From the NCBI GenBank assembly GCA_963674595.2, contig CAXXFV010000026.1:103623-167622 (forward strand): DNA of 64,000 bases, given 5' to 3'. The stretch is from a bacterium (lineage in GTDB: Bacteria > Zhuqueibacterota > Zhuqueibacteria > Residuimicrobiales > Krinioviventaceae). Of the stretch, positions 9,770-42,945 are shown one piece after another (within the stretch, counting starts at the first letter, position 1; the number at the start of each line of letters is the position of its first letter). The position numbers and the translations under genes were made by a program. Under the pieces are notes generated by a model. It searched no databases. It saw only the letters and a program-made list of their open reading frames with translations, and was not told where the DNA came from.

Positions 9770-9880
9770 CCTAAAGGACATAAGAAATTTTCATACTTAA
9801 CCAAATTGTCCTAAAAAAAATCGTTTATGACTGATATTAGAATAATACAAATTCTGTTGTACCGGCGCAAGAGGGTTTTG
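9770..9880 (-). promoter_or_regulatory. Dispersed promoter-leader element, copy 1 (most degenerate leader)
   Basis: TTGCGC (9870-9865), 17 bp ending CAGAATTTG, TATTAT (9847-9842), then 'TATCAGTCATAAACGA..TTTAGGACAATTTGGT'; aligns by eye with the other five copies. Confidence 0.75.
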
Positions 9881-9948
9881 AATAAAAATTATCCTTTTTC
9901 CTGATTTGTTGTGGTGTGAAGCGTTGCCGGAACGTTTGTTTTTTATAT

Positions 9949-9981
9949 AAAAACCGCCCCGGCAGGATTCCCGGTGCGGTT
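9949..9981 (-). terminator. Putative intrinsic terminator downstream of the LRR gene
   Basis: Imperfect stem AACCGCCCCGG/CCGGTGCGGTT followed by a T-run on the minus strand; a similar hairpin occupies the same position near element copy 5. Confidence 0.55.
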
Positions 9982-10015
9982 GGAATAGTTTATTTTACAA
10001 GAGATGCAGCACATG

Positions 10016-10043
10016 GTAGAGGCACGATTCATGGCGCCTCTGC
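10016..10043. repeat. Degenerate GTAG-family REP-like palindrome
   Basis: GTAGAGGCACGATTCATGGCGCCTCTGC, next to the LRR gene stop; related to the copies at 26195, 32802, 42676 and 46766. Confidence 0.6.
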
Positions 10044-10045
10044 GA

Positions 10046-12001
10046 CTATCTTATTAACATCAGTTTTATTGTCTGTGTGCAAGTCCCGGCTTGAATGTGG
10101 CACATATAAACGCCGCTTGTCATTAAATTGCCGTTCTCATCTTTTCCATTCCATTGTACTTTATGTAGTCCTTCCTGATGGATTTTGTCTTCAAGCACCT
10201 TTATTTGCTGACCAAGCATATTGTAAATTGAAATTCTGACTTGCACGGATTTAGGCAACGCATAACTAATTGTAGTGGCCGGATTAAACGGGTTGGGATA
10301 GTTTTGTTCAAGCGAAAATTCTCTGATTATATTATCCTCTGTTTCAACGGACACAACCGGTTCACCGACAATAATCGTGTGTGGGTCCGACCAATCTGTT
10401 TCAACGGCGCTCTCGTTTTTTGCCATAACCCTGATATCAAAATACCCTTCTGTTGCATAGGCATGCGAAAACTCGAATGTAGAGGCATTTGCATTTAATT
10501 CAACATAATCAGATATTGTTCCGTCGCCCCAGTCAATTTTCATTTGCACTTGTTTCTGAGTGTTGTCTGTCGCTGTTGCCTGGACCGTTACCACCTGGCC
10601 GACCTCTGCCGAATCTGACGGTTCACACCAGCAAATTGCCGCTGCATTGGGGTCCGCACCGCAGGTCCCATCCCAGCGAATATCTTCACAATTCATGGAA
10701 GGGAGATTGTCTGCCAGTTCCTGCATTTTGGTTCCACTGATAATTCCCGGATTTTCGTTCAAATATAAAAGCTTTAATTTATCCAAATGATACAATCCTG
10801 GTAAATCTTCATGGTCAAGCAGATTACCGTCAATCCCCAGATTTTGCAAATTAACCAGGTTTTGTAAATGATTGACGTCTTTTAAATGAAGGTTGGCAGA
10901 CCAAAAACTTGTTAATTCTGTCAAATTGGCAACTGGTGATATATCCTGAATAGGATTATTAGTAAGGGCCAGAGTTTTTAAATTACTCAAATTTTGAACG
11001 GCCGTAATATCCCTGACTTTGTTATTATCTATTTGAAGACCAATGAGATGGGTTAAATTTTGTACGGGAGTAATATCTTTTATTTGATTGTTCCTTATTG
11101 TCAGGTATTCCAAATCTGTCATGTTTTGTGTGGCAGAAATATCGGTTATTTGATTTTCAGAAAGAATAAGCTGATATATTCCCGTCAGGTTTTGCAAGGG
11201 AGAAATATCGCTTATCTGGTTATATGACAATTTTATATTTTCCAGGCCGGGTATATTTTGCAGCGGCGTTATATCGCTTATCTGGTTTGATGATGCAAAA
11301 AGCAGCTTTAGTTGATTTAAATTTTGTAATGGAGATAAATCACTGATGGTAGTACGTTCAATATAAAGTGCTGTTAAACTGGATATATTTTGCACGATAG
11401 AAAGGTCACTTAGATCTATACCGTTAATCATCAGCGTTAGCAAGTTGGGTAGATTTTGTATGCCCGTAAAATCGGTGATTGGATTCCTGTCAAGGTAAAG
11501 ATATTGCAAATTTACAAGATTTTGCAGTGCGGTCAGGCTGGTGATTTGATTTTGTATCAGGCTGATATTAGACAGGTTGGTTAAATTTTGCAGCGGTGTT
11601 ATATCAACAATATTATTTTTATAAAGCTCCAGGCGGGTCAGGCTGGTCAATCCTTGCAAAGGAGTCAGGTCAACTATCAGATTATTGTTAAGGTAAAGTT
11701 TTGTCAGATTTACGGCATATTCCAGGCCCGTTAAATCTGATATGCTGTCATCTTCGGCTGTAAAAGATGTTAATGTTTCCATGTCCGTATCGTAAATATC
11801 GCCGCTCGGTTTTGCCAGCGTTTCCCGGACAGCCTGTTCCAGATGGGAATCATTAAAAACCACAACAATCCCATCATTCACTGAATTTTTTACGGCATGT
11901 TTGTTATAAGGATCTGAAAAACCATTTGCTGTTTGCGCGGATACCATAGTGATCAAAAATAAAGGAATTAAACAGGCGATTAATAGTCTTAATGCTTTCA
12001 T
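10046..12001 (-). CDS. Internalin-like leucine-rich-repeat protein with PKD-like and FlgD-Ig/T9SS-type C-terminal domains
   Basis: Signal peptide, cap 'FNDSHLEQAVRETL', many 22-aa LRRs (NQISDISPLQNLT), PKD 'IDWGDGT..FSHAY', CTD 'QNYPNPFNPATTISY'. Confidence 0.92.
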   Translation of the reverse strand: MKALRLLIACLIPLFLITMVSAQTANGFSDPYNKHAVKNSVNDGIVVVFNDSHLEQAVRETLAKPSGDIYDTDMETLTSFTAEDDSISDLTGLEYAVNLTKLYLNNNLIVDLTPLQGLTSLTRLELYKNNIVDITPLQNLTNLSNISLIQNQITSLTALQNLVNLQYLYLDRNPITDFTGIQNLPNLLTLMINGIDLSDLSIVQNISSLTALYIERTTISDLSPLQNLNQLKLLFASSNQISDITPLQNIPGLENIKLSYNQISDISPLQNLTGIYQLILSENQITDISATQNMTDLEYLTIRNNQIKDITPVQNLTHLIGLQIDNNKVRDITAVQNLSNLKTLALTNNPIQDISPVANLTELTSFWSANLHLKDVNHLQNLVNLQNLGIDGNLLDHEDLPGLYHLDKLKLLYLNENPGIISGTKMQELADNLPSMNCEDIRWDGTCGADPNAAAICWCEPSDSAEVGQVVTVQATATDNTQKQVQMKIDWGDGTISDYVELNANASTFEFSHAYATEGYFDIRVMAKNESAVETDWSDPHTIIVGEPVVSVETEDNIIREFSLEQNYPNPFNPATTISYALPKSVQVRISIYNMLGQQIKVLEDKIHQEGLHKVQWNGKDENGNLMTSGVYMCHIQAGTCTQTIKLMLIR

Positions 12002-12046
12002 TATTTAATCTCTCCTTATTTTATTACCAGACGATATAAATTTGCA

Positions 12047-12448
12047 TTAATCTCTAAATATTAAACCATCAAATGTAGAAAATTGAATTTTTTCATTTTG
12101 AGGTTCAAACCTGATACAAACGGTAAGAGTATCGTTGAGATAGAATGCGTATTTTTTCTGCAAATTATAATTAAATATTTCAATCTGCAGGGTATAGTTT
12201 CCTTGTGGATAGACTTTAGGGCCACTGCCCCATGCCGCGCTGATGGTATAATTTGTAGAGACACGTTTTTGAACAAGCAAGTCATTGTTTATCTCTATTC
12301 TTACGGAATCGTTTTTGAATGCCGATTCCAAATCAACAGCCAAAACAGCGTTTTTAATAATTTCAGGCTCTGTTGATTTTGTGCAGTTGAATATGAGAAC
12401 CGAAATTATGGCAAAAACCAGAATAAAAACCAGAAATTTTGATTTCAT
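12047..12448 (-). CDS. Hypothetical lipoprotein
   Basis: Hydrophobic N-terminus ending in 'IFNC' followed by TKSTEP. Confidence 0.65.
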   Translation of the reverse strand: MKSKFLVFILVFAIISVLIFNCTKSTEPEIIKNAVLAVDLESAFKNDSVRIEINNDLLVQKRVSTNYTISAAWGSGPKVYPQGNYTLQIEIFNYNLQKKYAFYLNDTLTVCIRFEPQNEKIQFSTFDGLIFRD

Positions 12449-12513
12449 AAAATTACCTGTATATAACGTTTTATTATTTCCAGGGTCCGGAATGAGGGAC
12501 CGGCCTGTGAATT

Positions 12514-12918
12514 TTAGCCCGGCTTTTCATCATTCAATGGTGTTTTTCTTGGTTTCATGAGTGCGAGTACACCATATATCAGGGCAAACAGTCCGAACAG
12601 TATGACCATAGACCACCCGCGTGAATTGGCGCCGGCGTATTGGCCGCGAACGGCCATAACACAACACAGCGCGTTCGTGATGAACAGGGACAGCGATATT
12701 TTCCACTGTAAATTGTGGTCGCTTGTATCTCTGAAAAGCCAAATGAGCAGACCCAGTCCCAGAAGCGTGGCTCCCCAGAACTGATAAACCACCAGTCCCA
12801 TAGGGGGTAAACTGACATCATAATGTGCTAAAAGCTGGTCCGGCATGACCATACAGGCAATTCCGGACACGGCGGCCAGTACGGCATTTATGGTTAATAA
12901 AACTTTAAACTTTATCAT
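12514..12918 (-). CDS. Small 4-TM membrane protein
   Basis: AGGAGA RBS before ATG 12918; four hydrophobic segments. Confidence 0.7.
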   Translation of the reverse strand: MIKFKVLLTINAVLAAVSGIACMVMPDQLLAHYDVSLPPMGLVVYQFWGATLLGLGLLIWLFRDTSDHNLQWKISLSLFITNALCCVMAVRGQYAGANSRGWSMVILFGLFALIYGVLALMKPRKTPLNDEKPG

Positions 12919-13019
12919 AACTCTCCTGAAATTCAAAATCTTCGGTTTTTGGAGTAGAGTCTTTAGGGGCTGTTTTATGGCACTATTTAATTTTTTCTAT
13001 TTATCTCTGAATGGTACGC

Positions 13020-13178
13020 GATATTACCGTACTCTTTGCTACCCGTTTTAATATCCTGATTGAAAATCCGCAGGACTGCCAGAACCTTGTATGCTCGACC
13101 AAATAATTTTTAAAAACAGTCCTTTACGGCTGATAATGAATTATACAAATTCTGTGATATTGGCGCAAGGGGTTTTTG
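13020..13178 (-). promoter_or_regulatory. Dispersed promoter-leader element, copy 2
   Basis: TTGCGC (13168-13163), 17 bp, TATAAT (13145-13140), then 'TTATCAGCCGTAAAGGACTGTTTTT..ATTTGGTCG..AAAACGGG..AGTAC'. Confidence 0.8.
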
Positions 13179-13519
13179 ATATAAATATTTAAATCCCCGA
13201 GGAGTTGTTTTTTGTTTGCAGTTGCTAGTGCAGCATCATTAAAATGGCTGGTCTACTGATTATCATTAAAAGAGTTCGATATTAAAAAACCAGACTACAC
13301 GTTTCAAATATCGCAAGTGCCGTTTGAATTAACAGGCCCTATTATTTGAAATAACAAACCTGCTTTTGGTATTTATTCTTTTTCGGACTCGACATCTTTT
13401 ATTTGTTAGAGGCATTTTCTACCCGACTGAAAGCCCAGTTGCAGGATGGACCATTTTGGCCCATCATTTAATTGATATAAAAATCTGTGGTGTTTGTCTG
13501 TACACATCTTTTCGTGTTA

Positions 13520-13555: not shown

Positions 13556-13557
13556 GA

Positions 13558-14997: not shown

Positions 14998-15110
14998 GTA
15001 GGTTGGGTCCATCTTTTTGGCCCCTACAATTACTCACCAAATTTATGTTCAACGATGCAATTCATAGTAATATTGTTTATCGCTGGGGCATAGATAATGC
15101 CCCAGCCTAC
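14998..15110. repeat. Inverted pair of GTAG-type REP palindromes (REPIN-like)
   Basis: GTAGGTTGGGTCCATCTTTTTGGCCCCTAC at 14998; GCTGGGGCATAGATAATGCCCCAGCCTAC ending 15110 reads GTAGGCTGGGGC.. on the reverse strand. Confidence 0.6.
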
Positions 15111-15132
15111 GACTATAATTTTTGTTTGCCAA

Positions 15133-16455
15133 TTATTTTTGGTAAATTAATTTTTTTACCTCTGAAAAGTCATTAGTTTGAATTTTATATATATAAACAC
15201 CACTCGCCAAATTCTTAGGTTGCCATGTTGCTTGATGCTCACCAGTTGTCTGTCGGCAATCGACCAATGTCTCAACAAATTGGCCGGCTATATTATAAAT
15301 TGATAGATTAACATACGTTGGTTTTTTGATATTATATTTGATAGTTGTGGATGGATTAAATGGGTTAGGGTAGTTATTAAAAAGTTGAAATGTCTGGGAA
15401 TAACAACCATCGTTTTGAATAAATGTCGTTGTGGGAAGCATTGGACCACCAAAAGCACCTATGTCATTCCTTGTACCGTCTTGGTCATTATATTCGGGTG
15501 CCGGATCACCTGCATCAATACACGGGGAACTCTCTTGCAGATGATAATCGCCATGTTCAAAAGGGTATGGTGTTACATCGTTAGTAAATAACGGATCTTT
15601 AGATATATCATTCTCACCTGTATCAGTGTTTTCGTAATTGTTTACATTACCATAATCGTCACTATTATCAAATACATTATTATATGATATGTCAAGGATT
15701 GATCCATTTACGCTTTCTATTCCACAACCATAAACACCTGGCCATGCTGCCCCCCATTTAAAATCATTATTTGATATAATATTATTTTTTATGGTGCAAG
15801 ATGAACTGTCTACTAATAATCCCCAACCTGAACCATAGATGGCTCCATTTTCCCCATCATTGTGACTAATAGTATTGTTGATTATTGAAACGTTTTCCGA
15901 AGAAAGTATTTTTACACCACAACCACCACCGCCATCTAAATAAGCACAATTATGGATAATTAAATTATTTTTAAGTATCACATTATTTGATTCCGAAATG
16001 GATACTCCAAAGCCGGTAGGATGTTCATAATCACTACCAAAATTATCACGAATGAAACAGTTCTCAATTGTTACATTCTCAGAATTATATGTATTTATGC
16101 CTACATTATAACGTTCAATTATAAAACCATGAATAACAACTGAATTTGCACTCATTATATGAATACCAACTCCACCTACTGTTTGACTATTTATCCATTC
16201 CTGGGAAATTAAAACGGTATAGTCAGAACTTATCGATACGATACTTATTGATTTGTCAATTTCCAGATTTTCTGAATATTCGCCCCCGGCAACTTCGATA
16301 ATATCCCCTTGTTCTGACGCATCAATGGCAAGTTGAATTCTTGAATAATCTTGTGGTACTTTAATAACATTTCCTGTTACAGTAGCAGTCTTGAACATTA
16401 TTATTAATGCTAAAACTAAAGTTAATTTGTAGTGTGATAAAAAATTTCTTTCCAA
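15133..16455 (-). CDS. Right-handed parallel beta-helix (NosD/pectin-lyase-like) protein with T9SS-type CTD
   Basis: 'VPQDYSRIQLAID..GDIIEVAGGEYSENL', repeated 'I.NN.I..N', 'DYHLQESSPCIDAGDP..DIGAFGG', CTD 'NNYPNPFNPSTTIKY'; TTG start with AGGAGG RBS. Confidence 0.88.
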   Translation of the reverse strand: MERNFLSHYKLTLVLALIIMFKTATVTGNVIKVPQDYSRIQLAIDASEQGDIIEVAGGEYSENLEIDKSISIVSISSDYTVLISQEWINSQTVGGVGIHIMSANSVVIHGFIIERYNVGINTYNSENVTIENCFIRDNFGSDYEHPTGFGVSISESNNVILKNNLIIHNCAYLDGGGGCGVKILSSENVSIINNTISHNDGENGAIYGSGWGLLVDSSSCTIKNNIISNNDFKWGAAWPGVYGCGIESVNGSILDISYNNVFDNSDDYGNVNNYENTDTGENDISKDPLFTNDVTPYPFEHGDYHLQESSPCIDAGDPAPEYNDQDGTRNDIGAFGGPMLPTTTFIQNDGCYSQTFQLFNNYPNPFNPSTTIKYNIKKPTYVNLSIYNIAGQFVETLVDCRQTTGEHQATWQPKNLASGVYIYKIQTNDFSEVKKLIYQK

Positions 16456-16542
16456 CTTTCGCCTCCTTTACATTGCACTAATTTTAATTAATAAAAATAT
16501 TGATATATTATACATTTTTTTTCCTAGATTGATACTAATAGC

Positions 16543-16672
16543 GGCTAACGGCTCGTTTCACCGGCCTTGCAAACATGCCCATCGTCCATTGGATGCCAGA
16601 GTTACATTTCGGCTAAAACTTGATATTTTACCGTTCTTTAGCTCAGCGGTCGCTTGAAACTCAAGCCTTAAG
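16543..16672 (-). other. Possible decayed integron attC site
   Basis: Minus strand CTTAAGGCTTGAGTTTCAAGCGACCGC ... GGCCGGTGAAACGAGCCGTTAGCC: an imperfect ~130-bp inverted repeat ending in a GTTAGCC core; the inverse core is degraded. Confidence 0.4.
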
Positions 16673-16815
16673 AGAAACCGAAACACAAATCAAGACATAT
16701 CGTTCCGGTGAAAGCAGGAATCCAGAAATTTTAGGGAACGCCTTTGCGACCTCTGCAGCTCTAAAACTAATTTTTTGCTCGCAATTGAAACACTCAAGGC
16801 GGTTAAAAAGTCAAT

Positions 16816-18948
16816 TTACTTGAGCAAGATCATTTTTTTGATCACATTCATACCACCTCCTTCCAGACGATAGAAATAAGTTCCTGAAGGTAAATTCGAA
16901 GCGTCAAACAAAACTTGATGTGTACCAGCTTGACAGTCATCGTCTAACAATACGGCAACCTTTTGTCCACTAATATTGTAAACCTTGAGGTTGTAATGAT
17001 CGTCTTTTGCCGCCCGGAATGTGATTGTCGTTTCCGGATTGAAGGGATTAGGATAATTTTGTTGTAATTTAAATTCGTTTAAAACGTTTGATGTTGTATT
17101 ATTAACCGCTGATTGGCCTTCAACAATTATATAGTTTTGTTTTATCATTATATCAGAGCCACCTATTCCATTTACAGTTAAAGTTACAGAATAAGTACCC
17201 GGAGTTGAATAAATATGAACCGGATTTTTCTCAGTACTTGTTGAATCATCTCCAAAATTCCACAATCTTTCAGAAACAGAAGCTTTGGAACTATCGAAAA
17301 ATTGCACGACCAGAGGAACGGTCCCTGTGGTTGAATCTGCCAAAAAATTAGCTGAGGGAGGAAGCGGTTCCGGAATGACTGTGGCGGCACAACTGGTGTT
17401 CCGGGAATCATGGCCATCGCAGGGCCACGGGGTATTTGCAAGACCGCCTGATTCGGTCTGATAAGTGTATATTACTTTATCATCATAACAATAAAGATAT
17501 ATACGCCCATCGTTTGACATCTTGATGGCATTCATTCTACCGGGCACGGGAATTGATTTTTGTAGTACGCCATTTGGTTGAATAGCATACAATACATTTT
17601 CATTGGTTGTGATGTAAATTGTACTATCTGCACCGACTAATGGGGCCAATCGAATCCAATCTTTTTCATTATTAACTAATTCTAAATCGTATGACCATAT
17701 TTCATTTCCATCAGTCTGATTTACAGCAGATAATTCTGATTTAGAATAATTTGACATGTTTTGTCCTGAAGCGATATAAATGCTACCACCTGGTCCAATA
17801 ATTTGATGATGTGGATCCAAAAAATTATTGTTCGTTTCGAAATCAATATTTCCATTTGAATTAAGTGAATACAGAGAACACCATTGCAAATAAGTACTTC
17901 CACTATGGTTGCCCAGATGAAACACATTATCATTTTCACCAATGATAATGGGACCGAGAACGGATTTATATTCAACTTCCTTGATCCATTTTAATGTACC
18001 GTCTGGTTTATAAACATTGATTTTACCATGCATGTTGTAATGACTAAAGAAATAAATATTGCCATTGCCGTCAATGCTTATTTTGGTGTCGACGTCTATA
18101 AATTCAACAGGCGTTTTCCAATTGAGTGTTCCATCCTGTTGAAAAGAGTAAAGAGAATCAGATCCGAGATAGGAGTGATCTATACCGACGATTACAGAGC
18201 CGTCCAGACCTATGGAAGGCGGTTGATAATTAAACTCATAATATTCATCGAATTTGTATTGCCAGTTTAATTCACCCTGGGGAGAAATTGAAAAAAGAAC
18301 AGCTTTGTCAGTTTTTCTAACAAAATAAACAAAACCGTCTGAATCAACTGCCATACGAGATATGTTAGAGTTTAGATCAGACAAGTCATAAATCCATTTG
18401 ACAGTACCCGTCCTATCTAGGGCAAATAATTTGTAATTTTTATAATAAGTGCTTGGAATTCCGATTGTTAAACAATAGATAACATTTCGTTCATCATCAA
18501 TAGCGATATCACGAATAGAAATTTTATTGTCATTATATTCATCGTAATCATTTAAATTAAAAAATGATATTGTTTCATACGATCCCACTATAATTTTATA
18601 TGTAGTAGTTGTTGTATACGTTTTTCTCAGTGTAACCCCTTTTGCCGTTCTGGTAACCTTGATGGCGGTTCCCAAAGGTGTATCTTGAGAAATAATAATT
18701 TCTATACCCAGTTTAACAGCCCCGTCAATCAGGCCGCTTGCGTCACTAAAAGCTGTAACTTTTGCATATTCAGGATGACTGTTTTCAATGGTAAATTCTA
18801 TACCCCCGATGAATGGACAATTGCCGCCACATGAAAGTGAGCCGTCAATTTGATAAATCGCATCGCCTGGTTGTACAGAAAAATTGAGTGAATATAAATG
18901 TGACGAAATAGCAAAGAAGAAAATAATAAATAGCGTGAGTTTTTTCAT
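16816..18948 (-). CDS. PQQ-like beta-propeller protein with PKD domain and T9SS-type CTD
   Basis: Repeats 'PDGTLKW', 'QDGTLNW', 'PQGELNW'; 'PWPCDGHDSRNT'; PKD 'PLVVQFFDSS..WNFGDDSTSTEKNPVHIY'; CTD 'QNYPNPFNPETTITF'. ATG 18948 gives a signal peptide. Confidence 0.88.
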   Translation of the reverse strand: MKKLTLFIIFFFAISSHLYSLNFSVQPGDAIYQIDGSLSCGGNCPFIGGIEFTIENSHPEYAKVTAFSDASGLIDGAVKLGIEIIISQDTPLGTAIKVTRTAKGVTLRKTYTTTTTYKIIVGSYETISFFNLNDYDEYNDNKISIRDIAIDDERNVIYCLTIGIPSTYYKNYKLFALDRTGTVKWIYDLSDLNSNISRMAVDSDGFVYFVRKTDKAVLFSISPQGELNWQYKFDEYYEFNYQPPSIGLDGSVIVGIDHSYLGSDSLYSFQQDGTLNWKTPVEFIDVDTKISIDGNGNIYFFSHYNMHGKINVYKPDGTLKWIKEVEYKSVLGPIIIGENDNVFHLGNHSGSTYLQWCSLYSLNSNGNIDFETNNNFLDPHHQIIGPGGSIYIASGQNMSNYSKSELSAVNQTDGNEIWSYDLELVNNEKDWIRLAPLVGADSTIYITTNENVLYAIQPNGVLQKSIPVPGRMNAIKMSNDGRIYLYCYDDKVIYTYQTESGGLANTPWPCDGHDSRNTSCAATVIPEPLPPSANFLADSTTGTVPLVVQFFDSSKASVSERLWNFGDDSTSTEKNPVHIYSTPGTYSVTLTVNGIGGSDIMIKQNYIIVEGQSAVNNTTSNVLNEFKLQQNYPNPFNPETTITFRAAKDDHYNLKVYNISGQKVAVLLDDDCQAGTHQVLFDASNLPSGTYFYRLEGGGMNVIKKMILLK

Positions 18949-19146
18949 TACCTGGCCTTTCTGTTTAACATAAATCGAAATATTAACTCTTGATACATGC
19001 TGCAAAATGAATATTAATGGCTAAACTCTATCGTAAGGGTGGGGAGACAAGTGCCCGCATTCTGATAATTATGTTTTGGAATTCCACCTCTAATGCGGTT
19101 TATGGCGGATCGATAAATCGATCCACTATAAACTTTTATCAACCAA

Positions 19147-20979
19147 TTATTTTAACAACAAACACTTGTGCGTTTTTTGATATTTATCCGCATAAAATTT
19201 GATAAAATATGTGCCGGTTGGATTATTTTTAGCATTCCAGATAATTCGGTGGTCACCGCCCGACATTTCCTGTTCTATGAGCTTTTCTACTAATCTTCCA
19301 TTTATGTCATATATTGAAATATCAACAAATGATTTTTTTGCCAGCGTAAATGGAATTGTTGTCGTGGGATTAAACGGATTTGGATAATTTTGTTGTAGCT
19401 GAAAAGCCTCAGGGACTGAATTATTTTCGCTGGATGAAACAGACGCCGGAGTTTCGACAATGACGATAAAATCTTTCGAATCAACGGTGTGTTTGCCGGT
19501 AATGTCTGTAAAAGCATATGTTACGCTGATATTTGAATAATGGCCAGGTGGTGTGTTTTCGGCGATGGCAATTTTGAGCACCCAACCAAAACTGTCCATT
19601 TCATAAACATTGGGACCGCCAATAAGAATAGGTTGAATAAATTCATCACCGCCGGTAACTGTGCTTCGGTCTGCTAACACCACGGAATTTGTGTTTGCGT
19701 TAGTACCATGAACTGTAACCGTATCACCCGGTGTTAAATAAACTTCTGTTCCACTGCCCGGAAGTTTGTAGAAAAAGGTAGTAGAATTAAACTCACTCCA
19801 GGTGTTGTCGCTGTTCATTGCATGGGCGTATATTGTGTGTTTTGTATTGTTTTTTAGATTTGGAATTATTAACGGATTGTAAAATTCTTCACTCATACTG
19901 TTAAATTCACCATCCGTTGCAGGTAGAGGATAACCGGTTCCGTCTTCGCCAATGCTGTCAACAAAACATTCCACAGATTTTATTGTTTGGTTCGACTCGG
20001 CTTTGCCAACAATTTCAACAACATTTCCATTAGTCGGCGATTCATTTACATAAAGTTGAGAAATGGAAAAATCATTTGTTGAAACATAAATGGAATCTAC
20101 AACAACATAGTCTTTCCCATCAAAAGCAGCAATTTTATAACAGTAGGTACTGCTTTCAGAAGGAGTATCAAATGATGTAAAATCGCGAACAGATTCAAGC
20201 AGCACATTGTCTTTAAATACATGAAAGGCTTCAATACCACCATTTATTGGTTTAATTTTTATATAGTCAAATTTGGCCTTTCCATTTTTTAAAGCATCAT
20301 ACATAACCAGGCCAACTTTCCCGCTGGAATGCTCTGCCCAAAATGGAACAGCATCTTTAATGTCATGATAATTTTGATAGACACCGTTGATGGTTACGGT
20401 TACGGCAGGGAGGGCCGATGCTTTTAGCTCAATTACATTCCATTGCCCCAAATTTTCATTTAATTCACTACTTGCAATCCATCCGGTCACGTTTTCAAGA
20501 CCTTGAGAGGAAAAGTTGTTAATTCTATAATCTCCGTAGCCGTGAATAAATTTATGAGTCGATTGCCAATTCCCGTCATCTCTTAGTGTAGTTGGATCTC
20601 CATTAAAAAATATTCCGACATTATCTTTATCACCTTGAGTTTTTGTCATTTTTGTTTCTATTATAATGTTGCTATAGTTTTGGTCGAAATATATTGAAGC
20701 ATTTTTGTGTGATCCTGAAGTGACTTCCAGGAAGCCGTTATTTACCTTCCAATTACCGGAGCGAGTTTTCCATTTGCTGTCAAGTGTTTCAAAATCGTCA
20801 TATATGTACTTGTCAAAATAGCCATTTTCCAAACTTGTACCCCAATTTAGAGTAACTTTTCCGGTTTGTTTATCGACTTGAGCATCCAGACTGTAAATTT
20901 CCTGGCTAAAACTTTTTATAGTGGAAATTAAAATGAACAAAAGTAAATAGGTTACTGTTCGGTGTATCAACCTTGTCAT
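19147..20979 (-). CDS. Secreted protein with DUF1080/ConA-like domain and T9SS-type CTD
   Basis: Signal peptide after GGAGG RBS; 'DDFE..WKTRSGNWKV..WNVIEL..SSGKVGL..FDYIKI' beta-sandwich; CTD 'QNYPNPFNPTTTIPF'. Confidence 0.8.
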   Translation of the reverse strand: MTRLIHRTVTYLLLFILISTIKSFSQEIYSLDAQVDKQTGKVTLNWGTSLENGYFDKYIYDDFETLDSKWKTRSGNWKVNNGFLEVTSGSHKNASIYFDQNYSNIIIETKMTKTQGDKDNVGIFFNGDPTTLRDDGNWQSTHKFIHGYGDYRINNFSSQGLENVTGWIASSELNENLGQWNVIELKASALPAVTVTINGVYQNYHDIKDAVPFWAEHSSGKVGLVMYDALKNGKAKFDYIKIKPINGGIEAFHVFKDNVLLESVRDFTSFDTPSESSTYCYKIAAFDGKDYVVVDSIYVSTNDFSISQLYVNESPTNGNVVEIVGKAESNQTIKSVECFVDSIGEDGTGYPLPATDGEFNSMSEEFYNPLIIPNLKNNTKHTIYAHAMNSDNTWSEFNSTTFFYKLPGSGTEVYLTPGDTVTVHGTNANTNSVVLADRSTVTGGDEFIQPILIGGPNVYEMDSFGWVLKIAIAENTPPGHYSNISVTYAFTDITGKHTVDSKDFIVIVETPASVSSSENNSVPEAFQLQQNYPNPFNPTTTIPFTLAKKSFVDISIYDINGRLVEKLIEQEMSGGDHRIIWNAKNNPTGTYFIKFYADKYQKTHKCLLLK

Positions 20980-21254
20980 CGTGACCTCCATTTCTGAATC
21001 ATGTCATGTGATCTCTATCAGCATAAACCAACGAACTGTGCCGTATGTTGATTTATTACTTTGTATTGTGTTGTCAGGATAAACGTACTGTTTCGACTTT
21101 TTCCCGCTCAGATTGTTTATAATGTTGTAATTTTAGTACGTTTTTTGCCGGTTTTAATAAAATTTTGGTAATGTGGCACAATGTGCCTGAATAAACAGAG
21201 TTTTTCGGATATTTTTCATCAACAGTACTACATCTGAGTATTTGGATGTTGTCA

Positions 21255-21420
21255 CTAACACAATTTTTTTTGTTCGTACTATTAGTACCCGTTTTTATAA
21301 AATGGTGGAAAATCAGCAAAAGACTGTCAGGGTTCCCGTGGTTGATCACATGATCATGGGAAGTAGTCTTTTATGGCTGACGTATGGATAATACTAATTC
21401 TGAGGTAAAGGTGCAAGTTA
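21255..21420 (-). promoter_or_regulatory. Dispersed promoter-leader element, copy 3 (diverged)
   Basis: TTGCAC (21416-21411), 17 bp, TATTAT (21393-21388), then 'TCAGCCATAAAAGACT..CACGGGAACCCTGA..CTTTTGCTGATTTTCC..AAAAACGGG..AGTAC..ATTGTGT', collinear with copy 6. Confidence 0.75.
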
Positions 21421-21496
21421 ATTTTATATAAAGTTTAGGGATTTCCCCCCTGGTTTAAAACCCCCGTTTATAGTGTTGTGAACGATACTTTTCTGT

Positions 21497-22959: not shown

Positions 22960-22960
22960 T

Positions 22961-25806: not shown

Positions 25807-26009
25807 TATGATCTATCTCTTAAAAAAAATATTAAAATCAATTGTGAATTATTATCAGGCATTACATAGTTATAATATATTCCTCTAGCCATATTTTTAG
25901 TAGCTAAATATCGAAACTTTTTGATCTGCTTTTATAGTACAGTTCTAATACATTATTGATATATAATATTAAAAAATTTCTTATAATTTTTCAGACAGAT
26001 AAAAGATCA

Positions 26010-26160
26010 CATACTTAAAAAATCCCGTAATTATGTAGTGAAAATCAGATAAAGAACATTCAGGAACTCCCGTGCGCGACCAAATTGTCCTGAAAAACAG
26101 TTCCTTATGGCTGATAGCGAATAATACAAATTCTGTGATTTTGGTGCAAGGGGTTTTTAA
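26010..26160 (-). promoter_or_regulatory. Dispersed promoter-leader element, copy 4
   Basis: TTGCAC (26149-26144), 17 bp, TATTAT (26126-26121), then 'TATCAGCCATAAGGAACTGTTTTTCAGGACAATTTGGTCGCGCACGGGAGTTCCTGA'. Confidence 0.85.
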
Positions 26161-26194
26161 AATATTTTTGAGCTTTTTATTCTCGCCCCACACG

Positions 26195-28196: not shown

Positions 28197-28598
28197 GGAT
28201 GATTTTCTCCTGTTTGGCACGTGTGGTCTTCTCCTTATATCGTATTAACGGTGAAATGTACAAAGAGATTTTGTGGATTTAAAGAAGTATTTTGAGAAAT
28301 AAACAGGTGTGTGGTGAGTTGAGGATTTGTGGGGCTGAAAGGGGGATGGCTATATTGCGGCTGGATGTAACATGCAGTCAGGTGAAATGTAACAAATGTT
28401 AGAAAAAAATTACAGGATAAGGACCATTACCGGCTGATAAAAAATATCGAGATTTTTACGGGCTATTTGAGGGTTTGACAGATGGGGACTGACTGGGGAT
28501 AAATATTTATAGGAGTCATTTGTACCACTTGAAAACAGCAAAATCGATTTACTGTTGACATGGAAAAAAGACCTGAATTTGTTAGGACCGCAGAAAAC

Positions 28599-28760
28599 CT
28601 AGTCAATGTCCACGTCATTGGGGTGTAAATGAACCACCTTGCCGTTTTCGGATATGACTATACGTTGGTTTCTGTCTTTTTTTGACTTTATCAACTTGTG
28701 GTAGGTCAATTCGAGTCCTTTAATGATTTTTTCTTTAATGTCGTTATTTTTTTTCTTCAT
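28599..28760 (-). CDS. 53-aa basic partner protein of the zeta-like ATPase
   Basis: Below the ORF-track cutoff; hand translation MKKKNNDIKEKIIKGLELTYHKLIKSKKDRNQRIVISENGKVVHLHPNDVDID; its start overlaps the end of the ATPase gene. Confidence 0.75.
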   Translation of the reverse strand: MKKKNNDIKEKIIKGLELTYHKLIKSKKDRNQRIVISENGKVVHLHPNDVDID

Positions 28761-29331
28761 TTAAAGCAACCATTTTTATAGAGTCAAATATATCCTGTTT
28801 TTTAATACTGATAATTTTATTTGTATATCCTTCTGCAATTAATTCAGAAGGCAGTTTTGAATTATCAAAAATCATCCAAAAATCACAAACCGGCATATAT
28901 AAACGAAAAAGATTTTTCAATCCTTTGAAATACCTTCTTATAATAATCGGTTCCGCAATATTATGTCCGCCTTCACGTACCCTGGTTTTAACCCGTTCAA
29001 TTGCCAGTTTCGTTGAATCGAGCCAGAAAAAAACCAAAGTAATATGATAGTTTGCCAGTTTTGCTTTCTGAATCATTTTAACATAAGTTTTTGACGCCAA
29101 GGTCGTTTCAAAAGCAAAATCCTGTCCTGTTGAGATCAGTTTCTCTATTTTTGTCAGCATGAGCCTGCCGGATTCAATCAATGGTTTTTCAGGATTCAGC
29201 GGCGATAAACCTCTGGCAATTTCATCTGCATTGACAAACTCGTGACAATCCAACATTTCCGGTAATACGGTAAAAGAAGCCGTTGTTTTGCCTGCTCCAT
29301 TACTTCCGGCGATAATATACAGGTTCGGCAT
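28744..29331 (-). CDS. Zeta-toxin family / AAA P-loop protein
   Basis: Walker A 'AGSNGAGKTT', 'FVNADEIARGL', 'FAFETTLA', 'RVREGGHNI'. Confidence 0.9.
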   Translation of the reverse strand: MPNLYIIAGSNGAGKTTASFTVLPEMLDCHEFVNADEIARGLSPLNPEKPLIESGRLMLTKIEKLISTGQDFAFETTLASKTYVKMIQKAKLANYHITLVFFWLDSTKLAIERVKTRVREGGHNIAEPIIIRRYFKGLKNLFRLYMPVCDFWMIFDNSKLPSELIAEGYTNKIISIKKQDIFDSIKMVALNEEKK

Positions 29332-29566
29332 TATTAATTTTCTTTAGTCATTTTGTTGGTATCAAAATCTTTTTATAAATTTTTATTATTACCGGATTAT
29401 ATAAATAACTTAGTTCGTTTTTTAATTATTTGCAAGTTAATTTATTAAATAAATCTTTATACTGATATCCTGCATATTTTAAAACTAAAAACAGTGGTCC
29501 GGACAGCCGATGTCTGTTTTTTACCTTTTTAAAACAATGTTATTTAAATTTAGAAGTATCCCGTTT

Positions 29567-30187
29567 TTAACAGCACGGATTAAAAGTAATATCTTCAGGA
29601 CCGATGATGCCGCCGGATATGACCGTGCGGATACCTTCATCGACCGACCATTCCGGATCAATAATTTCTGATTCTTTTAAAATAACCATTGTCCCTGATG
29701 TAGGATTTGGGGGTGTGGGAACAAATACTTTGTATAGTTTTTCACCGGAATTTTTGTCTTTTAAAGAACCTGTTATAAACCCGATTGTATAGATGTTTTT
29801 TGTCAGGTAATTTACCAGCACGGCTTTTTTAAATACCTGTTTTTCCGGTAATGATAACGTGGTGGAAATTTGTTTCCCAACCTGATAGGTTGTTCCGATA
29901 ATGGGTATTTTTTTCATGATACGTTCAAAAAAATTAAAAAACCACTTGCCAAACAGGTTTCTGGAAAACAAGCCGATCCCGTAAAGCAATAAAGTAATGA
30001 AAATTAATCCCAAACCCGGGACCCTGATGCCAATTAAATCGTCAATAAGGTTTAAAACATTTTGGTCGATTGCTACATAAAGAAACCGGAGCACAATAAA
30101 TACCAGGAAAAGCGGAACAACAGCCAATAACCCTGAAAAGATATTTTTTTTCAAGTGTTGCATAAAATGGTTCAACTTTTGCCTCAC
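29567..30187 (-). CDS. DUF502 domain membrane protein
   Basis: 'GLLAVVPL', 'IPIIGTTY', 'VFVPTPPNPTSG', 'VISGGI'. Start uncertain (GTG 30187 or ATG 30163). Confidence 0.9.
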   Translation of the reverse strand: MRQKLNHFMQHLKKNIFSGLLAVVPLFLVFIVLRFLYVAIDQNVLNLIDDLIGIRVPGLGLIFITLLLYGIGLFSRNLFGKWFFNFFERIMKKIPIIGTTYQVGKQISTTLSLPEKQVFKKAVLVNYLTKNIYTIGFITGSLKDKNSGEKLYKVFVPTPPNPTSGTMVILKESEIIDPEWSVDEGIRTVISGGIIGPEDITFNPCC

Positions 30188-30418
30188 ATTTTTTTGCTGA
30201 AAAACCAATTTATTTGGTAGAAAGATAATATTCAACCGGATATAATACTATGTACCATAAAAAGCAAGAATTTTTTCGTCTTTTAAAGAAAGTCTGGTTT
30301 AACAGGCTTTAATACACATGGGTAAAATGGATTAACCGGACTGTCAAGTTTGCTTTCAGTATCAACAGGATTTGTAAAAATATGCTTGTTTTTGCCGTCA
30401 TTACCGGCTGATAAAAAG

Positions 30419-32213: not shown

Positions 32214-32479
32214 GACCACCCTCATAATTTTGTATGTCTTTTATATCTAGCACGTTAAATTTTATTTATGGGAAAACATTCTGATCGTCCAGAGGTTCTT
32301 GCACATGGACTGATTAATAAAAGGTCTCTTGGCCCTCCTATGTTAAACATTAATTGTTTATGGTTATAAGGTGTAAAATTTTTCTGCTCTCAAGAATAGG
32401 AATTACTGGGCTATTATTAATGGCATGGCAATACCGCACCTTACTTTCATGGACATTCCACACTATACATTATTAACCG

Positions 32480-32680
32480 TGAGCCAAAAGGAATATGATC
32501 TTGTGACGGATACAATCTTTCCTCGTGCCTGTTTTTAAATCCCATATATGAATAAAAATTGAAAACCAGCAAAAGGACCATCAGGAACTCCCGTGCGCGA
32601 CCAAATCGTCCTGAAATAATCCTAAATAACTGATATCAAATAATACAAACTTTGTATGTTTGAGGCAAGCGGTTTTTAAA
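32480..32680 (-). promoter_or_regulatory. Dispersed promoter-leader element, copy 5
   Basis: TTGCCT (32668-32663), 17 bp, TATTAT (32645-32640), then 'TTTCAGGACGATTTGGTCGCGCACGGGAGTTCCTGATGGTCCTTTTGCTGGTTTTC..GGGATT..AAGATTGT..ATATTC'; similarity to copy 6 extends roughly 190 bp. Confidence 0.85.
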
Positions 32681-32744
32681 AAATTTCCACCTTTTTTCCC
32701 GGCTTGTTTGGGTGGAACGTTGTCGGAAGGATGTGTTTTTATAT

Positions 32745-32777: not shown

Positions 32778-32801
32778 AAAATTTATTTTTTGGATTTTTG
32801 G

Positions 32802-32829
32802 GTAGAGACGCAAAATTTTGCGTCTCTAC
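32802..32829. repeat. GTAG-family REP-like palindrome (perfect)
   Basis: GTAGAGACGCAAAATTTTGCGTCTCTAC. Confidence 0.8.
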
Positions 32830-38490: not shown

Positions 38491-38520
38491 TTTTTATACG
38501 AATATAAATTTATAAGACGA

Positions 38521-39672: not shown

Positions 39673-39839
39673 GTTAATTTATATTAAAATATCAGAATTT
39701 ATTTTTAATATTCAGATTTTTAAGATAGTCTATTTCCGTATAAAAAACAAAAACTTTTGAATGGAAGGACGTTGATTTACAATAAATTACAATTTTATTT
39801 TCAGGAGGACGGGTGATAAATGTGCAGGGGAAATTGGGT

Positions 39840-39868
39840 AAAAAACGGGAGATGCCGGCATCTCCCGT
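39840..39868 (-). terminator. Terminator closing the symporter / small gene / repeat-array transcript
   Basis: Perfect 24-bp palindrome ACGGGAGATGCCGGCATCTCCCGT (39845-39868) followed by a T-run on the minus strand. Confidence 0.7.
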
Positions 39869-39877
39869 AATATTTTT

Positions 39878-40793
39878 TATTTGTTTCGTTTCGTAAAGCA
39901 GTAAACGCTGCCGATTAAAAGGGCAAATCCTGCAATTAAATCGAGAGTCAGGTCCCGACGGGACGGATCATGTTTTTTTTTGGTTCCATATATCAAAAAA
40001 TGCCGTTTATCATGAGGGTGAATTCTGCTATTAAACAAGAGTCAGGTCCCGACGGGACGGATCATAATCTTTTTTTTTCGTATCATATTTCAAAAAATAC
40101 CGCTTATCACAAGGGTGGATTCTACTAATAAAACGAGTATCAGGTCCCGTAGGGACTATTTATTTCGTTTTGTAAAGCAGAAAACGCCGCCTATCATAAG
40201 GGCAAATCCTGCAATTAAATCGAGAGTCAGGTCCCGACGGGACGGATCATATTCTATTTATTTTGTACTATATATCGAAAAATACCGTTTATCACAAGGG
40301 TGAAATCTGCTAATAAAACGAGTATCAGGTCCCGTAGGGACATTACTTGTTTCGTTTTGTAAAGCAGAAAACGCCGCCTATCATAAGGGCAAATCCTGCA
40401 ATTAAATCGAGAGTCAGGTCCCGACGGGACGGATCATGTTTTTTTTGGTTCCATATATCAAAAAACACCGTTTATCACAAGGGTGAATTCTGCTAATAAA
40501 ACGAGTATCAGGTCCCGTTGGGACTATTTGTTTCGTTTTGTAAAGCAGAAAACGCCGCCTATCATAAGGGCAAATCCTGCAATTAAATCGAGAGTCAGGT
40601 CCCGACGGGACGGATCATGTTTATTTTTGGTTCCATATATCAAAAAACACCGTTTATCACAAGGGTGAATTCTGCTAATAAAACGAGTATCAGGTCCCGG
40701 CGGGACTATTTGTTTCGTTTTGTAAAGCAGAAAACGCCGCCTATCATAAGGGCAAATCCTGCAATTAAATCGAGAGTCAGGTCCCGACGGGAC
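39878..40793. repeat. Higher-order tandem repeat array, 10 units of 87-98 bp, each ending in GTCCC-N3-GGGAC
   Basis: Palindromes start at 39952, 40046, 40144, 40231, 40329, 40418, 40512, 40599, 40694 and 40781. A units (87-89 bp) and B units (94-98 bp) mostly alternate and are homologous to each other. Confidence 0.95.
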
Positions 40794-40894
40794 AGCTCTG
40801 TAAACAAGGGGGTCAGCGCTGTAAAAAAGCCGATTCCCATAAAAAAGAAACTTGCCGGCAACCATATTTTAAGTTCGTATTTTGATTCTTCCAT
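40706..40894 (-). CDS. Small 2-TM membrane protein downstream of the symporter
   Basis: AAAGGA RBS, 62 aa with two hydrophobic helices and a basic tail, 30 bp after the symporter stop; its 3' half is repeat unit A. Confidence 0.7.
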   Translation of the reverse strand: MEESKYELKIWLPASFFFMGIGFFTALTPLFTELSRRDLTLDLIAGFALMIGGVFCFTKRNK

Positions 40895-40924
40895 ATCATG
40901 TTCCTTTGTAACAATTAATAAGGA

Positions 40925-42496
40925 TTAAAGAAGTATAGCTAAAAACGCATAAACCACAACAACGGCTGATACCAGAAAAACGCCCAGTATTTTGGGATTG
41001 TTGAGTCCTCTGCCGGTGATCTGCATATCTTCGTGTTCCACTTCCGGTTCGACAAAATTTTGTGCAAGACTAATGGCAACCGTAACAACCGTTGTTACCA
41101 GAAAAGAGACAAACGCGCGAAAATACAGAGTGTCTTTGGCAAAATCGGCCAGGTAACCTGCCATATCGGCTGTAAATAAAACAGAACCGACCACCAAGCC
41201 GATAATAACGCCCCACAATGCACCGCGCGGACTGCTGCGTCGCCACAGCGCGCCGAGAATCGTCACCGAACCAAAGGGCGGCATAATGGTCGCCAGAATA
41301 CCAACAGCCAAAAGGAACATGCCGTTTTTCGCAAAGGTAAAGATAAAAGCCGTGCCGATGGCCGCAACCGTAAAAATGATACCGGAAAGCCGCGACACCT
41401 TGATCAGTTTTTCCTGACTGGCGTTTTTATTGATCATGCGGCTGTAAATGTCTGTGGTAAACATGGTGCAGAACGCATTGATCTGTGAATCCGCACTGGA
41501 AAAGTTACCCGCCAGCAATCCGACAATGGTAATACCATAAAGTCCGTGGGGAAGATAATTTTTAATAAGCATGGGCATGGCAAAATCGTTGTTCGGCAGA
41601 CTGGGGAAATATTTAATCGCTGCCATGGCCGGTATATAAACGATAAAAGGCACGATCAGCGTGTGCCAGAAACCGGTGCCGATATAGGTTATGGCTGCTT
41701 CGCTGGTGTTGCGTGTGGAAAGCGGGCGCTGAATGATCTGCGCTTCACTGCTCCAGTAACTCATGGCTAAAAACAACATGCCGAAAATAGTAAAACCCAG
41801 CGGTCCGAAAGGAGTGTCCGGGTTCCAGATAGCGACTTTATCCGCCGGTAAACTATTGATCAGGTTAATGGGCCCGCCAACGTCCATCCACACAACGCCG
41901 GCCAAAAAGATAAAGGGAAAAAACATCAGCACAAGCTGAACAACATCCGTGGCAACAACCGCCCCGAATCCGCCTAGAATGGTATAGGTTGCGGCAACAA
42001 CCGTAAGAAATACGATTGAAAAATACAAGTCCCAGCCGACCAGCGTATGCATGACAATAGCGCCGGCGTAAATATAAAGACCCAGGTTAAAAAGCATCCA
42101 TATAAATGCCCAGATAATGCTGTAAAGGTTGCCGACCGGATCGCTGTAACGTTTTCGCAGCCATTCACCCAGCGTAAATACGTTCCTGCCCCGAAGTTTT
42201 CTCATCAGAATAAAGGCCAGAAAGAGAATAACCAGACTGTTAATTAATGAGGAGTGAATCATTACGATTCCCATGGCGTAAATAGCACCGGCGCCGCCGA
42301 TAAAGTCGTTGGCGTTCATATTCGTTGCTACGGTGGAAATACAGCCGATAAATCCCGGCACTTTGCGTCCGGCCAGAAAAGAGTCTGATAATTTTGCTTT
42401 CCCCTTGTCCTTAAGCATAACGCCCCAGATGGTAACACCGGCCATAAAAAATATGACCATGACCCATTCGTTTAGTAATAGTTTACCCGGCTCCAT
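40925..42496 (-). CDS. Sodium:solute symporter (SSS/SLC5) family protein
   Basis: 'SFLAGRK', 'YTILGGFGAVVATDVVQ', 'GLLAGNFSSADSQIN..FTTDIY'; AAGGAG RBS before ATG 42496. Confidence 0.93.
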   Translation of the reverse strand: MEPGKLLLNEWVMVIFFMAGVTIWGVMLKDKGKAKLSDSFLAGRKVPGFIGCISTVATNMNANDFIGGAGAIYAMGIVMIHSSLINSLVILFLAFILMRKLRGRNVFTLGEWLRKRYSDPVGNLYSIIWAFIWMLFNLGLYIYAGAIVMHTLVGWDLYFSIVFLTVVAATYTILGGFGAVVATDVVQLVLMFFPFIFLAGVVWMDVGGPINLINSLPADKVAIWNPDTPFGPLGFTIFGMLFLAMSYWSSEAQIIQRPLSTRNTSEAAITYIGTGFWHTLIVPFIVYIPAMAAIKYFPSLPNNDFAMPMLIKNYLPHGLYGITIVGLLAGNFSSADSQINAFCTMFTTDIYSRMINKNASQEKLIKVSRLSGIIFTVAAIGTAFIFTFAKNGMFLLAVGILATIMPPFGSVTILGALWRRSSPRGALWGVIIGLVVGSVLFTADMAGYLADFAKDTLYFRAFVSFLVTTVVTVAISLAQNFVEPEVEHEDMQITGRGLNNPKILGVFLVSAVVVVYAFLAILL

Positions 42497-42675
42497 TAAA
42501 TTCTCCTTTCTAAACAGGTGAGTGAGTATAGGTGGGGTCAGTTTTCGTGATATTTTTAACAATAAAGTTAATAATATTTCCCAAAAAAACAACAAACGAA
42601 TTTATGGAGGAGGATTATTTGTAAAGGGCAGAGAAGGAAAGGATTAGTTTGATAGTTTGGTTCGTTGGTTATTTC

Positions 42676-42703
42676 GTAGAGACGCAAGATTTTGCGTCTC
42701 TAC
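42676..42703. repeat. GTAG-family REP-like palindrome
   Basis: GTAGAGACGCAAGATTTTGCGTCTCTAC, about 50 bp upstream of element copy 6. Confidence 0.8.
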
Positions 42704-42744
42704 CATGTGGGCCAGGGAGATGAAATAAAAGTCTAAAAAATTTA

Positions 42745-42945
42745 TAAAAACCTCTTGCGCTGTTATTGCAGAATTTGTATTATTCGTTATCAGCTATAAA
42801 GGACTGTTTTTCAGGAAAATTTGGTCGCGCACGGGAGTTCCTGATTGTTCTTTTTGCTGGTTTTCCAATTTATTATTAAAAACGGGATTCAAAAGTACAA
42901 ACGGGGAAAGATTGTGTCGGTTGTATGGTTATATTCTTGTTGCCC
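42745..42945 (+). promoter_or_regulatory. Dispersed promoter-leader element, copy 6 (plus strand, upstream of the restriction endonuclease)
   Basis: TTGCGC (42755-42760), 17 bp, TATTAT (42778-42783), then 'TATCAGCTATAAAGGACTGTTTTTCAGGAAAATTTGGTCGCGCACGGGAGTTCCTGA'. Confidence 0.85.

Follow-up and report, generated by a model that had tools for sequence, protein, structure and literature searches.

Why should the same promoter-like DNA stand in front of one unrelated accessory gene after another? The question is raised by a 64-kb stretch of bacterial DNA, which we call the window (C26:103623-167622, on one of the 37 contigs of a 6.6-Mb host genome; positions given without a contig name are those of the window). 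A preliminary description of this DNA had noticed six dispersed copies of a promoter followed by a shared leader, with the -35 elements at 9870, 13168, 21416, 26149 and 32668 (minus strand) and 42755 (plus strand). All six copies were found at these positions, and TTGC(G/A/C)(C/T), a 17-bp spacer and TAT(T/A)AT are present in 6/6 (alignment A1). A degenerate 40-nt pattern allowing at most one mismatch recovered 4/6 copies, as compared with 0 in 100 shuffles. The copies align across both the promoter and the leader, and the combined reading of the two parts stands, but the length first given (about 110–200 bp) was too short. From the conservation profile, it is clear that conservation extends from about 35 nt 5' of the -35 element to about 190 nt past the predicted transcription start and then decays, giving a unit of 250–300 bp in which an A/T-rich tract lies ahead of a CTTGC -35, 17 bp separate this box from a TATTAT -10, and some 190 nt of leader follow. 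We refer to this unit as the module.

The balance of probability tips, in our judgement, towards a family of about 90 expression modules that is restricted to one genus. Each would be self-contained, with a housekeeping promoter joined to a 5' leader acting in cis, and would serve as a fixed port for exchangeable cargo genes. The analysis demonstrates a housekeeping-type promoter sequence, a foldable leader with compensatory changes, a directional linkage to unrelated cargo and the replacement of DNA on the 3' side of the module. The family proved far larger than six when the genome was scanned. An nhmmer model of the six window copies gave 90 genome matches at E ≤ 1e-3, and a model rebuilt from 74 copies gave 128, including 89 at 60 bits or more; this last threshold defines the family count of 89 used below. 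Among the 39 matches under 60 bits, 28 cover the promoter part alone, and a leader without a promoter is nearly absent. The same number of matches, 89, was returned from the host genome by R1, a covariance model restricted to the leader (166 positions, 27 pairs). No seventh copy was found in the 64-kb window by the nhmmer models.

The copies are spread over 19 of the 37 contigs, and 45% of them are concentrated in C29, C26 and C13, three contigs that jointly account for 7.6% of the genome. Neighbouring copies tend to point the same way (8/8 in C13, 6/6 in C16 and 18/21 in C29), and 39/70 spacings are shorter than 10 kb. Among 56 copies compared pairwise, the maximum identity is 83% and the median 59%, indicating that the copies are old and giving no sign of recent copying; the earlier suggestion of an actively propagating element is therefore not borne out. 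The nearest relative of a copy lies within 20 kb for 14/56 copies, against 1.45 expected.

Outside the host, the exact pattern occurred in 0 species-representative genomes and 0 viral contigs, and blastn detected no homologue in 40 relatives, phage records or plasmid records. A single pattern match in a Joint Genome Institute (JGI) metagenome contig was set aside as a chance match without a leader. The R1 covariance model gave 0 matches in other genomes, 18 from the family, 42 from the order and 150 sampled from the phylum, although the larger runs scored 19–66 candidates per genome and weak relatives could be missed. Thus, among the genomes searched, which include no congener of the host, the family is confined to the host genome. 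Literature on Calditrichota repeats and promoters, and on antitermination leaders of acquired genes, describes no such family in the papers searched, supplementary files lying outside the scope of that search.

The spacer is variable except for AATTTG ahead of the -10, and a TG flanks TATTAT. Upstream of the host tRNA genes and the rRNA operon we found cTTGAC or cTTGCA, a 17-nt spacer and TAtAaT, often with TG just before the -10 and with an A-rich tract. Judged by its sequence, the module promoter is the host's ordinary strong housekeeping (sigma-70-type) promoter. Since it matches the tRNA and rRNA promoters, no special sigma factor is needed; that candidate was dropped, there being also no sigma paralog tied to the module, and the notion of a special promoter falls with it. 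A generic scanner built on the E. coli consensus misses the module promoter because its -35 matches that consensus at 3/6 positions only. The predicted transcription start, 6–7 nt past the -10, coincides with the first base of a conserved ATCAG.

That ATCAG opens the leader fold. When 20 copies were folded as single sequences, one three-tier hairpin was the minimum free energy structure in most of them, comprising P1 (AUCAGc/gCUGAU), P2 (GGAC/GUCC and variants) and P3 (UCAGGA/UCCUGA). The TCAGGA..TCCTGA hairpin pointed out earlier in copies 4–6 is real and forms the inner tier of this longer structure. A second hairpin, P4, pairs AGGAA..GAUU with AAUC..UUCCU, and the arm that pairs with UUCCU is a purine-rich tract resembling a ribosome-binding site. 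The leader thus runs from P1–P3, capped by a conserved loop of about 20 nt, through a conserved linker and P4 to a G/U-rich tail; a U-rich run follows P4, and the two together are non-canonical as a terminator. Fold z-scores range from -3.15 to +0.65 and are -1.79 or lower in 7/20 copies. The P3 apical loop and the linker belong to the most strongly conserved parts of the leader, a pattern that speaks for specific recognition and not just a stabilising stem.

Pairing is maintained across the family. In a MAFFT alignment made blind to structure (A2), 86% of cells are paired, as compared with 28–47% when the partners are slid. In alignment A5 (82 matches, 75 distinct rows), which is fitted to the model and leans toward the structure, 85% of cells are paired as compared with 24–49% in slid controls. 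Double changes in A5 occur in 19/27 pairs (13.2±2.1 shuffled) and 87 cells (47.7±7.4 shuffled), the covariation score is 0.204 (0.162 shuffled), and 0/500 shuffles reach any of these three values. No known RNA family was recognised: Rfam 15 families gave 0 matches in the 64-kb window, and a search of 20 copies at E ≤ 5 gave 2 weak unrelated matches, both outside the module. Further structural candidates were rejected. Four G3 runs, as required for a G-quadruplex at the tail, occur in 2/88 tails and three runs in 6/88; ensemble folds gave no consistent partner for long-range tail pairing; and a mutual-information scan gave no new helices, its top pairs resembling a subfamily signal.

The modules point at genes. 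A same-strand open reading frame (ORF) of at least 80 aa starts 150–700 nt downstream of 79/89 copies, in contrast to 25/89 in the mirror image and 41% at random positions, so that the orientation toward unrelated accessory genes first noticed in the window holds genome-wide and is far from random. The ORF start lies at a median of 378 nt from model position 1 (interquartile range 327–451). This median implies a 5' untranslated region of about 310 nt, of which the conserved leader forms the first two thirds; the conserved part stops 70–200 nt short of the start codon, and no second conserved promoter is seen in the conservation profile of the variable part before the ORF. By blastp, the proteins encoded after the 89 copies group into 74 clusters, of which the largest has 12 members. 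A Pfam scan of 73 first ORFs, taken from the 74 best copies (one copy has no ORF), matched 117 families. The sorting domain of the type IX secretion system (T9SS) leads with at least 7/73 first ORFs, a lower bound because several ORFs are cut at the end of the locus. Matches to the defence families HEC-05, DrmD, PDC-S13, ThsB, BrxH, type I restriction-modification and LmuA were also obtained, this being a tally of families and not of how many of the 73 proteins have a defence match. The cargo includes defence genes, toxins, T9SS cargo and prophage cargo.

The edges of the unit are sharp. When the copies were compared together with 2-kb flanks, 1032/1052 similar pairs shared the element only; in the remaining pairs the upstream flank was also shared in 16, the downstream flank in 4 and both in 0. 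Across 88 copies, the longest inverted match between the ends averaged 5.8 nt (4.6 shuffled) and the longest direct match 6.4 nt (4.8 shuffled), giving neither terminal inverted repeats nor target duplications, and no transposase was linked to the copies among the downstream and neighbouring genes examined. These end-repeat tests and the coding tests described below agree with the preliminary description, which had noted neither a transposase nor terminal inverted repeats nor an ORF in common.

What happens at the 3' edge can be followed in a small number of cases. Four or five related prophage-like elements harbour eight of the copies; the elements encode a terminase large subunit, RecT/YqaJ or Mgm101/SSB, a DnaC-like loader and a ParB-like nuclease. 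In these eight copies the module follows the gene for the terminase large subunit or for a 196-aa protein and precedes variable cargo, while the remaining copies, about 80, do not adjoin the phage genes tested. The elements in C10, C3 and C9 are homologous at about 90% through the backbone and the module; the homology ends 213–240 nt after model position 1, gives way to 4–6 kb of cargo that differs between the elements, and resumes at a promoter-only copy. In 11 pairs, identity steps down from 0.82 upstream to 0.80 in the promoter, 0.78 in leader domain 1, 0.70 in domain 2 and 0.61 downstream, which is background.

A strain difference at window copy 3 gives a second line of evidence. The copy-3 cargo (14998..21293, minus strand), comprising three T9SS-tailed genes and the distal leader, is exchanged in a contig from run X10, where roughly 3.3 kb of different DNA connect 14997 with 21294; on the right, the break falls some 88 nt into the leader of copy 3, counted from its predicted start. 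One X5 contig shows a similar joint, from 15053 to 21288. The strain contigs come from metagenome-like runs and the replacement cases are few; parts of the window left uncovered in these runs were not counted as evidence. The earlier idea of a landing pad for acquired genes thus gains support in so far as cargo differs after the leader in three prophage-like elements and one strain contig.

How would such a module work? The housekeeping promoter would lead to constitutive initiation, and the RNA would fold from about its first base into P1–P3, the linker, P4 and a single-stranded G/U-rich tail. The leader may then act as a common post-initiation checkpoint for all module mRNAs. The module would be retained while the DNA 3' of it is exchanged, and so would become a fixed expression port in islands and prophage-like elements. 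As to the checkpoint itself, we tentatively favour a single lineage-specific factor acting in trans, which would recognise the conserved loops and thereby set elongation or read-through into the cargo; this possibility is to be held with clear reserve. That the leader is a plain 5'-terminal stabiliser, a reading suggested by P1 beginning at the predicted first base, seems unlikely to us. Less probable again is a ligand-sensing or other attenuator; a canonical terminator occurs in the leader or untranslated region of only 4/88 copies, which weakens such a model, and a terminator scan of two copies individually called none.

Several further points weigh against a promoter with a cis-acting leader as the explanation. 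The start site, the transcribed leader and the read-through are all predictions from sequence, and since the family is absent from all relatives searched there is no cross-species support for a function. The fold z-scores are modest and are zero or above in 6/20 copies, and the RNAalifold energy is just -2.39 kcal/mol, a weak value. The strong covariation comes from the structure-fitted alignment: it exceeds all 500 shuffles on A5 but not those on the structure-blind A2, where 9 pairs compare with 6.6±1.4 and 46/500 shuffles do as well. G-U cells outnumber A-C cells by 148 to 76 (1.95:1), which gives mild sequence-based support for selection on the sense-strand RNA, but base composition alone predicts about 1.45:1, so that the excess is mild. 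Candidates for a trans-acting factor were tested and none was found. An RfaH-like NusG paralog was rejected, the sole extra paralog lying in a polysaccharide locus, as was an antisense partner of the P3 loop, for which there are 0 sites outside the modules at up to 2 mismatches. rRNA-type boxA antitermination was likewise rejected, the host rRNA boxA being absent from the leader.

A dispersed, sharp-edged unit confined to one genus, clustered in islands and sharing nothing but itself in nearly all similar pairs, is also what one would expect of a non-autonomous mobile repeat, similar to a miniature inverted-repeat transposable element (MITE) or a Correia element, with an outward promoter; it would spread selfishly by transposition, and its effects on genes would be by-products. 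We consider this rather improbable, since the copies have no terminal inverted repeats, target duplications or linked transposase, their identities speak against any recent burst, they are strongly biased in orientation toward genes, and their conservation is position-specific, with the hexamers kept while the spacer varies and with compensatory changes in the stems. The bounding of prophage cargo by the leader 3' edge and the next promoter copy, the strain breakpoint within the copy-3 leader, the co-oriented arrays and the excess of best partners within 20 kb would also fit a device acting at the DNA level, in which the repeated 250 bp, possibly together with the G-rich tail, serve as portable homology or as a site for cargo exchange and expression is secondary. 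This, too, is improbable in our view: the comparison covers few loci (a single strain contig besides three plus three prophage-like copies), an identity of about 59% makes a poor substrate for homologous recombination, the four-run G-quadruplex motif is rare in the tails, no recombinase is linked, and the features conserved are promoter hexamers and RNA stems.

Two further rivals concern the transcript. Each copy could be a stand-alone small RNA (sRNA) gene of about 150–190 nt, with the downstream genes transcribed separately, a view in keeping with the gap between the conserved part and the start codon and with the U-rich stretch after P4. The co-orientation of most copies with the next ORF at a narrow distance, the scarcity of canonical terminators and the lack of a visible second promoter all speak against it, and we know of no precedent for about 90 paralogous sRNA genes; we regard it as very unlikely. 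A leader peptide starting from GAGGAAGAGA-TTG in domain 2, whose translation would control the downstream genes, has in its favour that this conserved frame stays open for a median of 28.5 codons, compared with 14.5 and 17.5 in the other frames, and reaches at least 20 codons in 71% of 52 copies. Yet diversity at the three codon positions is 0.34/0.25/0.27, showing no third-position excess of change, a stop occurs within 5 codons in 6/52 copies, about 20 further copies lack the motif, and the purine tract is paired in P4, so that a leader peptide is highly improbable. We retain the promoter with a cis-acting leader as the best explanation, at the strength given above.

The module was also compared with known systems. 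In an integron platform, the Pc promoter, attI and attC cassettes are arranged such that the platform, not the cargo, supplies expression. The module arrays resemble integrons in being co-oriented series of unrelated accessory genes, but every module unit has its own promoter and leader, in contrast to promoterless cassettes; no attC-like 3' site was seen in the upstream flanks and no integrase link was seen, no search aimed at an integron integrase having been made. Leaders that modify elongation include those of lambda PR'-6S/Q, HK022 put, EAR, and RfaH with ops/JUMPStart. They share with the module a strong promoter followed by a conserved structured leader before acquired or late genes, whereas the module has no Rfam or sequence match, no canonical terminator at the leader end and no host boxA. 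A phage moron is defined by its gene and not by a shared leader. As in morons and prophage cargo hot spots, eight module copies lie between conserved phage-like genes and variable, including defence-like, cargo, but the module also heads about 80 units outside the prophage-like elements. The layout of a moron, an independent promoter-gene-terminator unit set among conserved phage genes, fits these eight copies. The Borrelia upstream homology box is likewise reported as a shared upstream region before different lipoprotein genes on prophage-like plasmids, although in another phylum and with an unrelated sequence.

Correia elements and enterobacterial repetitive intergenic consensus (ERIC) sequences are likewise short repeats scattered between genes, able to provide promoters and to form structures once transcribed. 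Unlike these and MITEs, the module has no near-identical copies and keeps a strict orientation toward genes, besides lacking the end structures and target duplications already mentioned. Both are named in the work of Nijveen, Matus-Garcia and van Passel (2012) on putative mobile promoters (PMC3575422). That concept, promoter reuse by putative mobile promoters (PMC3575422), is the closest to ours, and the modules share its core idea: homologous non-coding DNA before non-homologous genes within one genome, with no known mobile element attached and, in some families, with RNA motifs (PMC3575422). The likeness lies in similar upstream DNA before non-paralogous genes, here 74 clusters from 89 proteins. 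Most putative mobile promoter families are pairs of about 92% identity at -150 to -50 from the start codon (PMC3575422); the identity asked for is 80% or more across 50 nt or more. The module family differs in its 89 members, a median identity of 59%, a location at about -380 to -130 and a structured leader of 190 nt. Some module pairs are 82–85% identical over 130–184 nt while the median pair stands at 59%, and the conserved part lies mostly beyond -130, not at -150 to -50.

The six window copies differ in how much of the leader they keep. Copy 1 (9712..9889, minus strand; -35 9870-9865, -10 9847-9842, predicted start ~9836; 94.6 bits with nhmmer) retains domain 1 only and scores 47 bits with the leader covariance model, and the ORF 9739-9041 starts within its model-aligned domain 2. 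In copy 2 (13012..13189, minus strand; -35 13168-13163, -10 13145-13140, predicted start ~13134; 96.7 bits) the leader is weakly retained past domain 1, and the next ORF (12936-12514, 140 aa) matches no family. Copy 3 (21219..21437, minus strand; -35 21416-21411, -10 21393-21388, predicted start ~21382; 102.4 bits) heads the unit of three T9SS-tailed genes at 20991-19147, 19005-16816 and 16455-15133. Copy 4 (25996..26175, minus strand; -35 26149-26144, -10 26126-26121, predicted start ~26115; 132.7 bits) is followed by an ORF of 111 aa (25806-25471) with a zinc-finger family match below the cut-off.

The full leader is present in the last two copies. Copy 5 (32466..32688, minus strand; -35 32668-32663, -10 32645-32640, predicted start ~32634; 170.9 bits) scores 146.8 bits with the covariance model, has a fold z of -3.15 and precedes a gene for a T9SS-tailed protein (32225-30969). 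Copy 6 (42730..42954, plus strand; -35 42755-42760, -10 42778-42783; 178 bits) scores 145.3 bits with the covariance model, with a fold z of -2.01, and its predicted start at 42789-42790 is the first base of the hairpin arm ATCAGC. Its ORF (43021-43920) is convergent with a DNA methylase gene (44973-43906). Thus, among the downstream products named in the preliminary description, the two cargo proteins with a C-terminal domain (CTD) stand, as proteins bearing the T9SS C-terminal sorting domain; the zinc-ribbon protein comes down to the sub-threshold zinc-finger match, and the label of restriction enzyme for 43021-43920 rests solely on the adjoining methylase gene.

Other repeats and variable stretches were seen in the window. 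A palindrome GTAGAGACGC..GCGTCTCTAC occurs at 10010-10045, 32801-32829, 42674-42703 and 46765-46793; it was rejected as a part of the module, having only 15 genome sites and lying within 300 nt upstream of 5/89 copies, and these palindromes may be terminators of the preceding genes. Other short repeats lie just upstream of many modules (for example in C29, C13 and at C26:9.9 kb), among them palindromes of the GTCACCCTGAGCG..GTCGAAGGGTG type and CACAAAG-rich runs. A tandem array at 39792-40814, with an unannotated ORF on one side and a sodium:solute symporter gene on the other, contains five copies of about 180 nt, equivalent to ten alternating units of about 92 nt, each with a GGTCCCGACGGGAC-type hairpin; its minus strand can be read as short hydrophobic peptides of about 29 aa. 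Eight 66-nt direct repeats at 10980-11620 encode the leucine-rich repeats in a protein with a T9SS tail (10046-12001, minus strand), and a direct repeat of 181 nt, 80% alike, is found 2.6 kb apart at 45174-45354 and 47802-47982. A 2.1-kb stretch at 28296-30400, with two ORFs (195 and 222 aa) without a family match, is absent in contigs from X4, X5 and X10, which have 35 nt instead; no module copy bounds it.

Elsewhere in the genome, the four or five prophage- or satellite-like elements, about 90% alike, occupy C10:52.4-62.8 kb, C3:117.3-128.3 kb, C3:27.8-40.4 kb, C3:78-82 kb, C9:123.5-127.3 kb and 140.4-142 kb, and C5:26.9-30.7 kb. The prophage-like elements comprise two module types, RecT/YqaJ and Mgm101/SSB, and share two paralogs of about 195 aa that match no family. 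The second NusG-family gene (C7:125341-125865, L202:1459-1983; 174 aa) is flanked by a chain-length tyrosine-kinase-like gene on one side and by sugar oxidoreductase-like genes on the other, and its product is probably a local regulator of the polysaccharide operon. Genes for two primary-like sigma factors (of 286 and 289 aa) and for one resembling FliA (256 aa) lie at C14:136446, C15:25997 and C23:676966, in a genome rich in T9SS cargo. The host primary sigma factor is closest to those of metagenome-assembled genomes labelled Calditrichaeota (77%) and KSB1 (75%), which gives a rough placement only.

How newly acquired genes come to be expressed and co-regulated is an open question, and here one reusable promoter and leader precedes about 90 accessory units. 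Should cargo really be swapped at the module edge, the module would mark where variable cargo sits in this lineage. Should the leader prove to be a common checkpoint, a large regulon would have been assembled by reuse of the module and not by transcription-factor sites, and the leader would represent a new class of structured RNA with about 90 natural variants. A more far-reaching proposal, which we think doubtful, is a form of gene capture without an integrase, in which about 90 fixed ports, distributed across islands and multi-copy prophage-like elements, would answer to one lineage-specific factor and the module would be the shared junction for the exchange of defence, toxin and secreted cargo. 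In that case, a single factor could switch the whole accessory gene set together.

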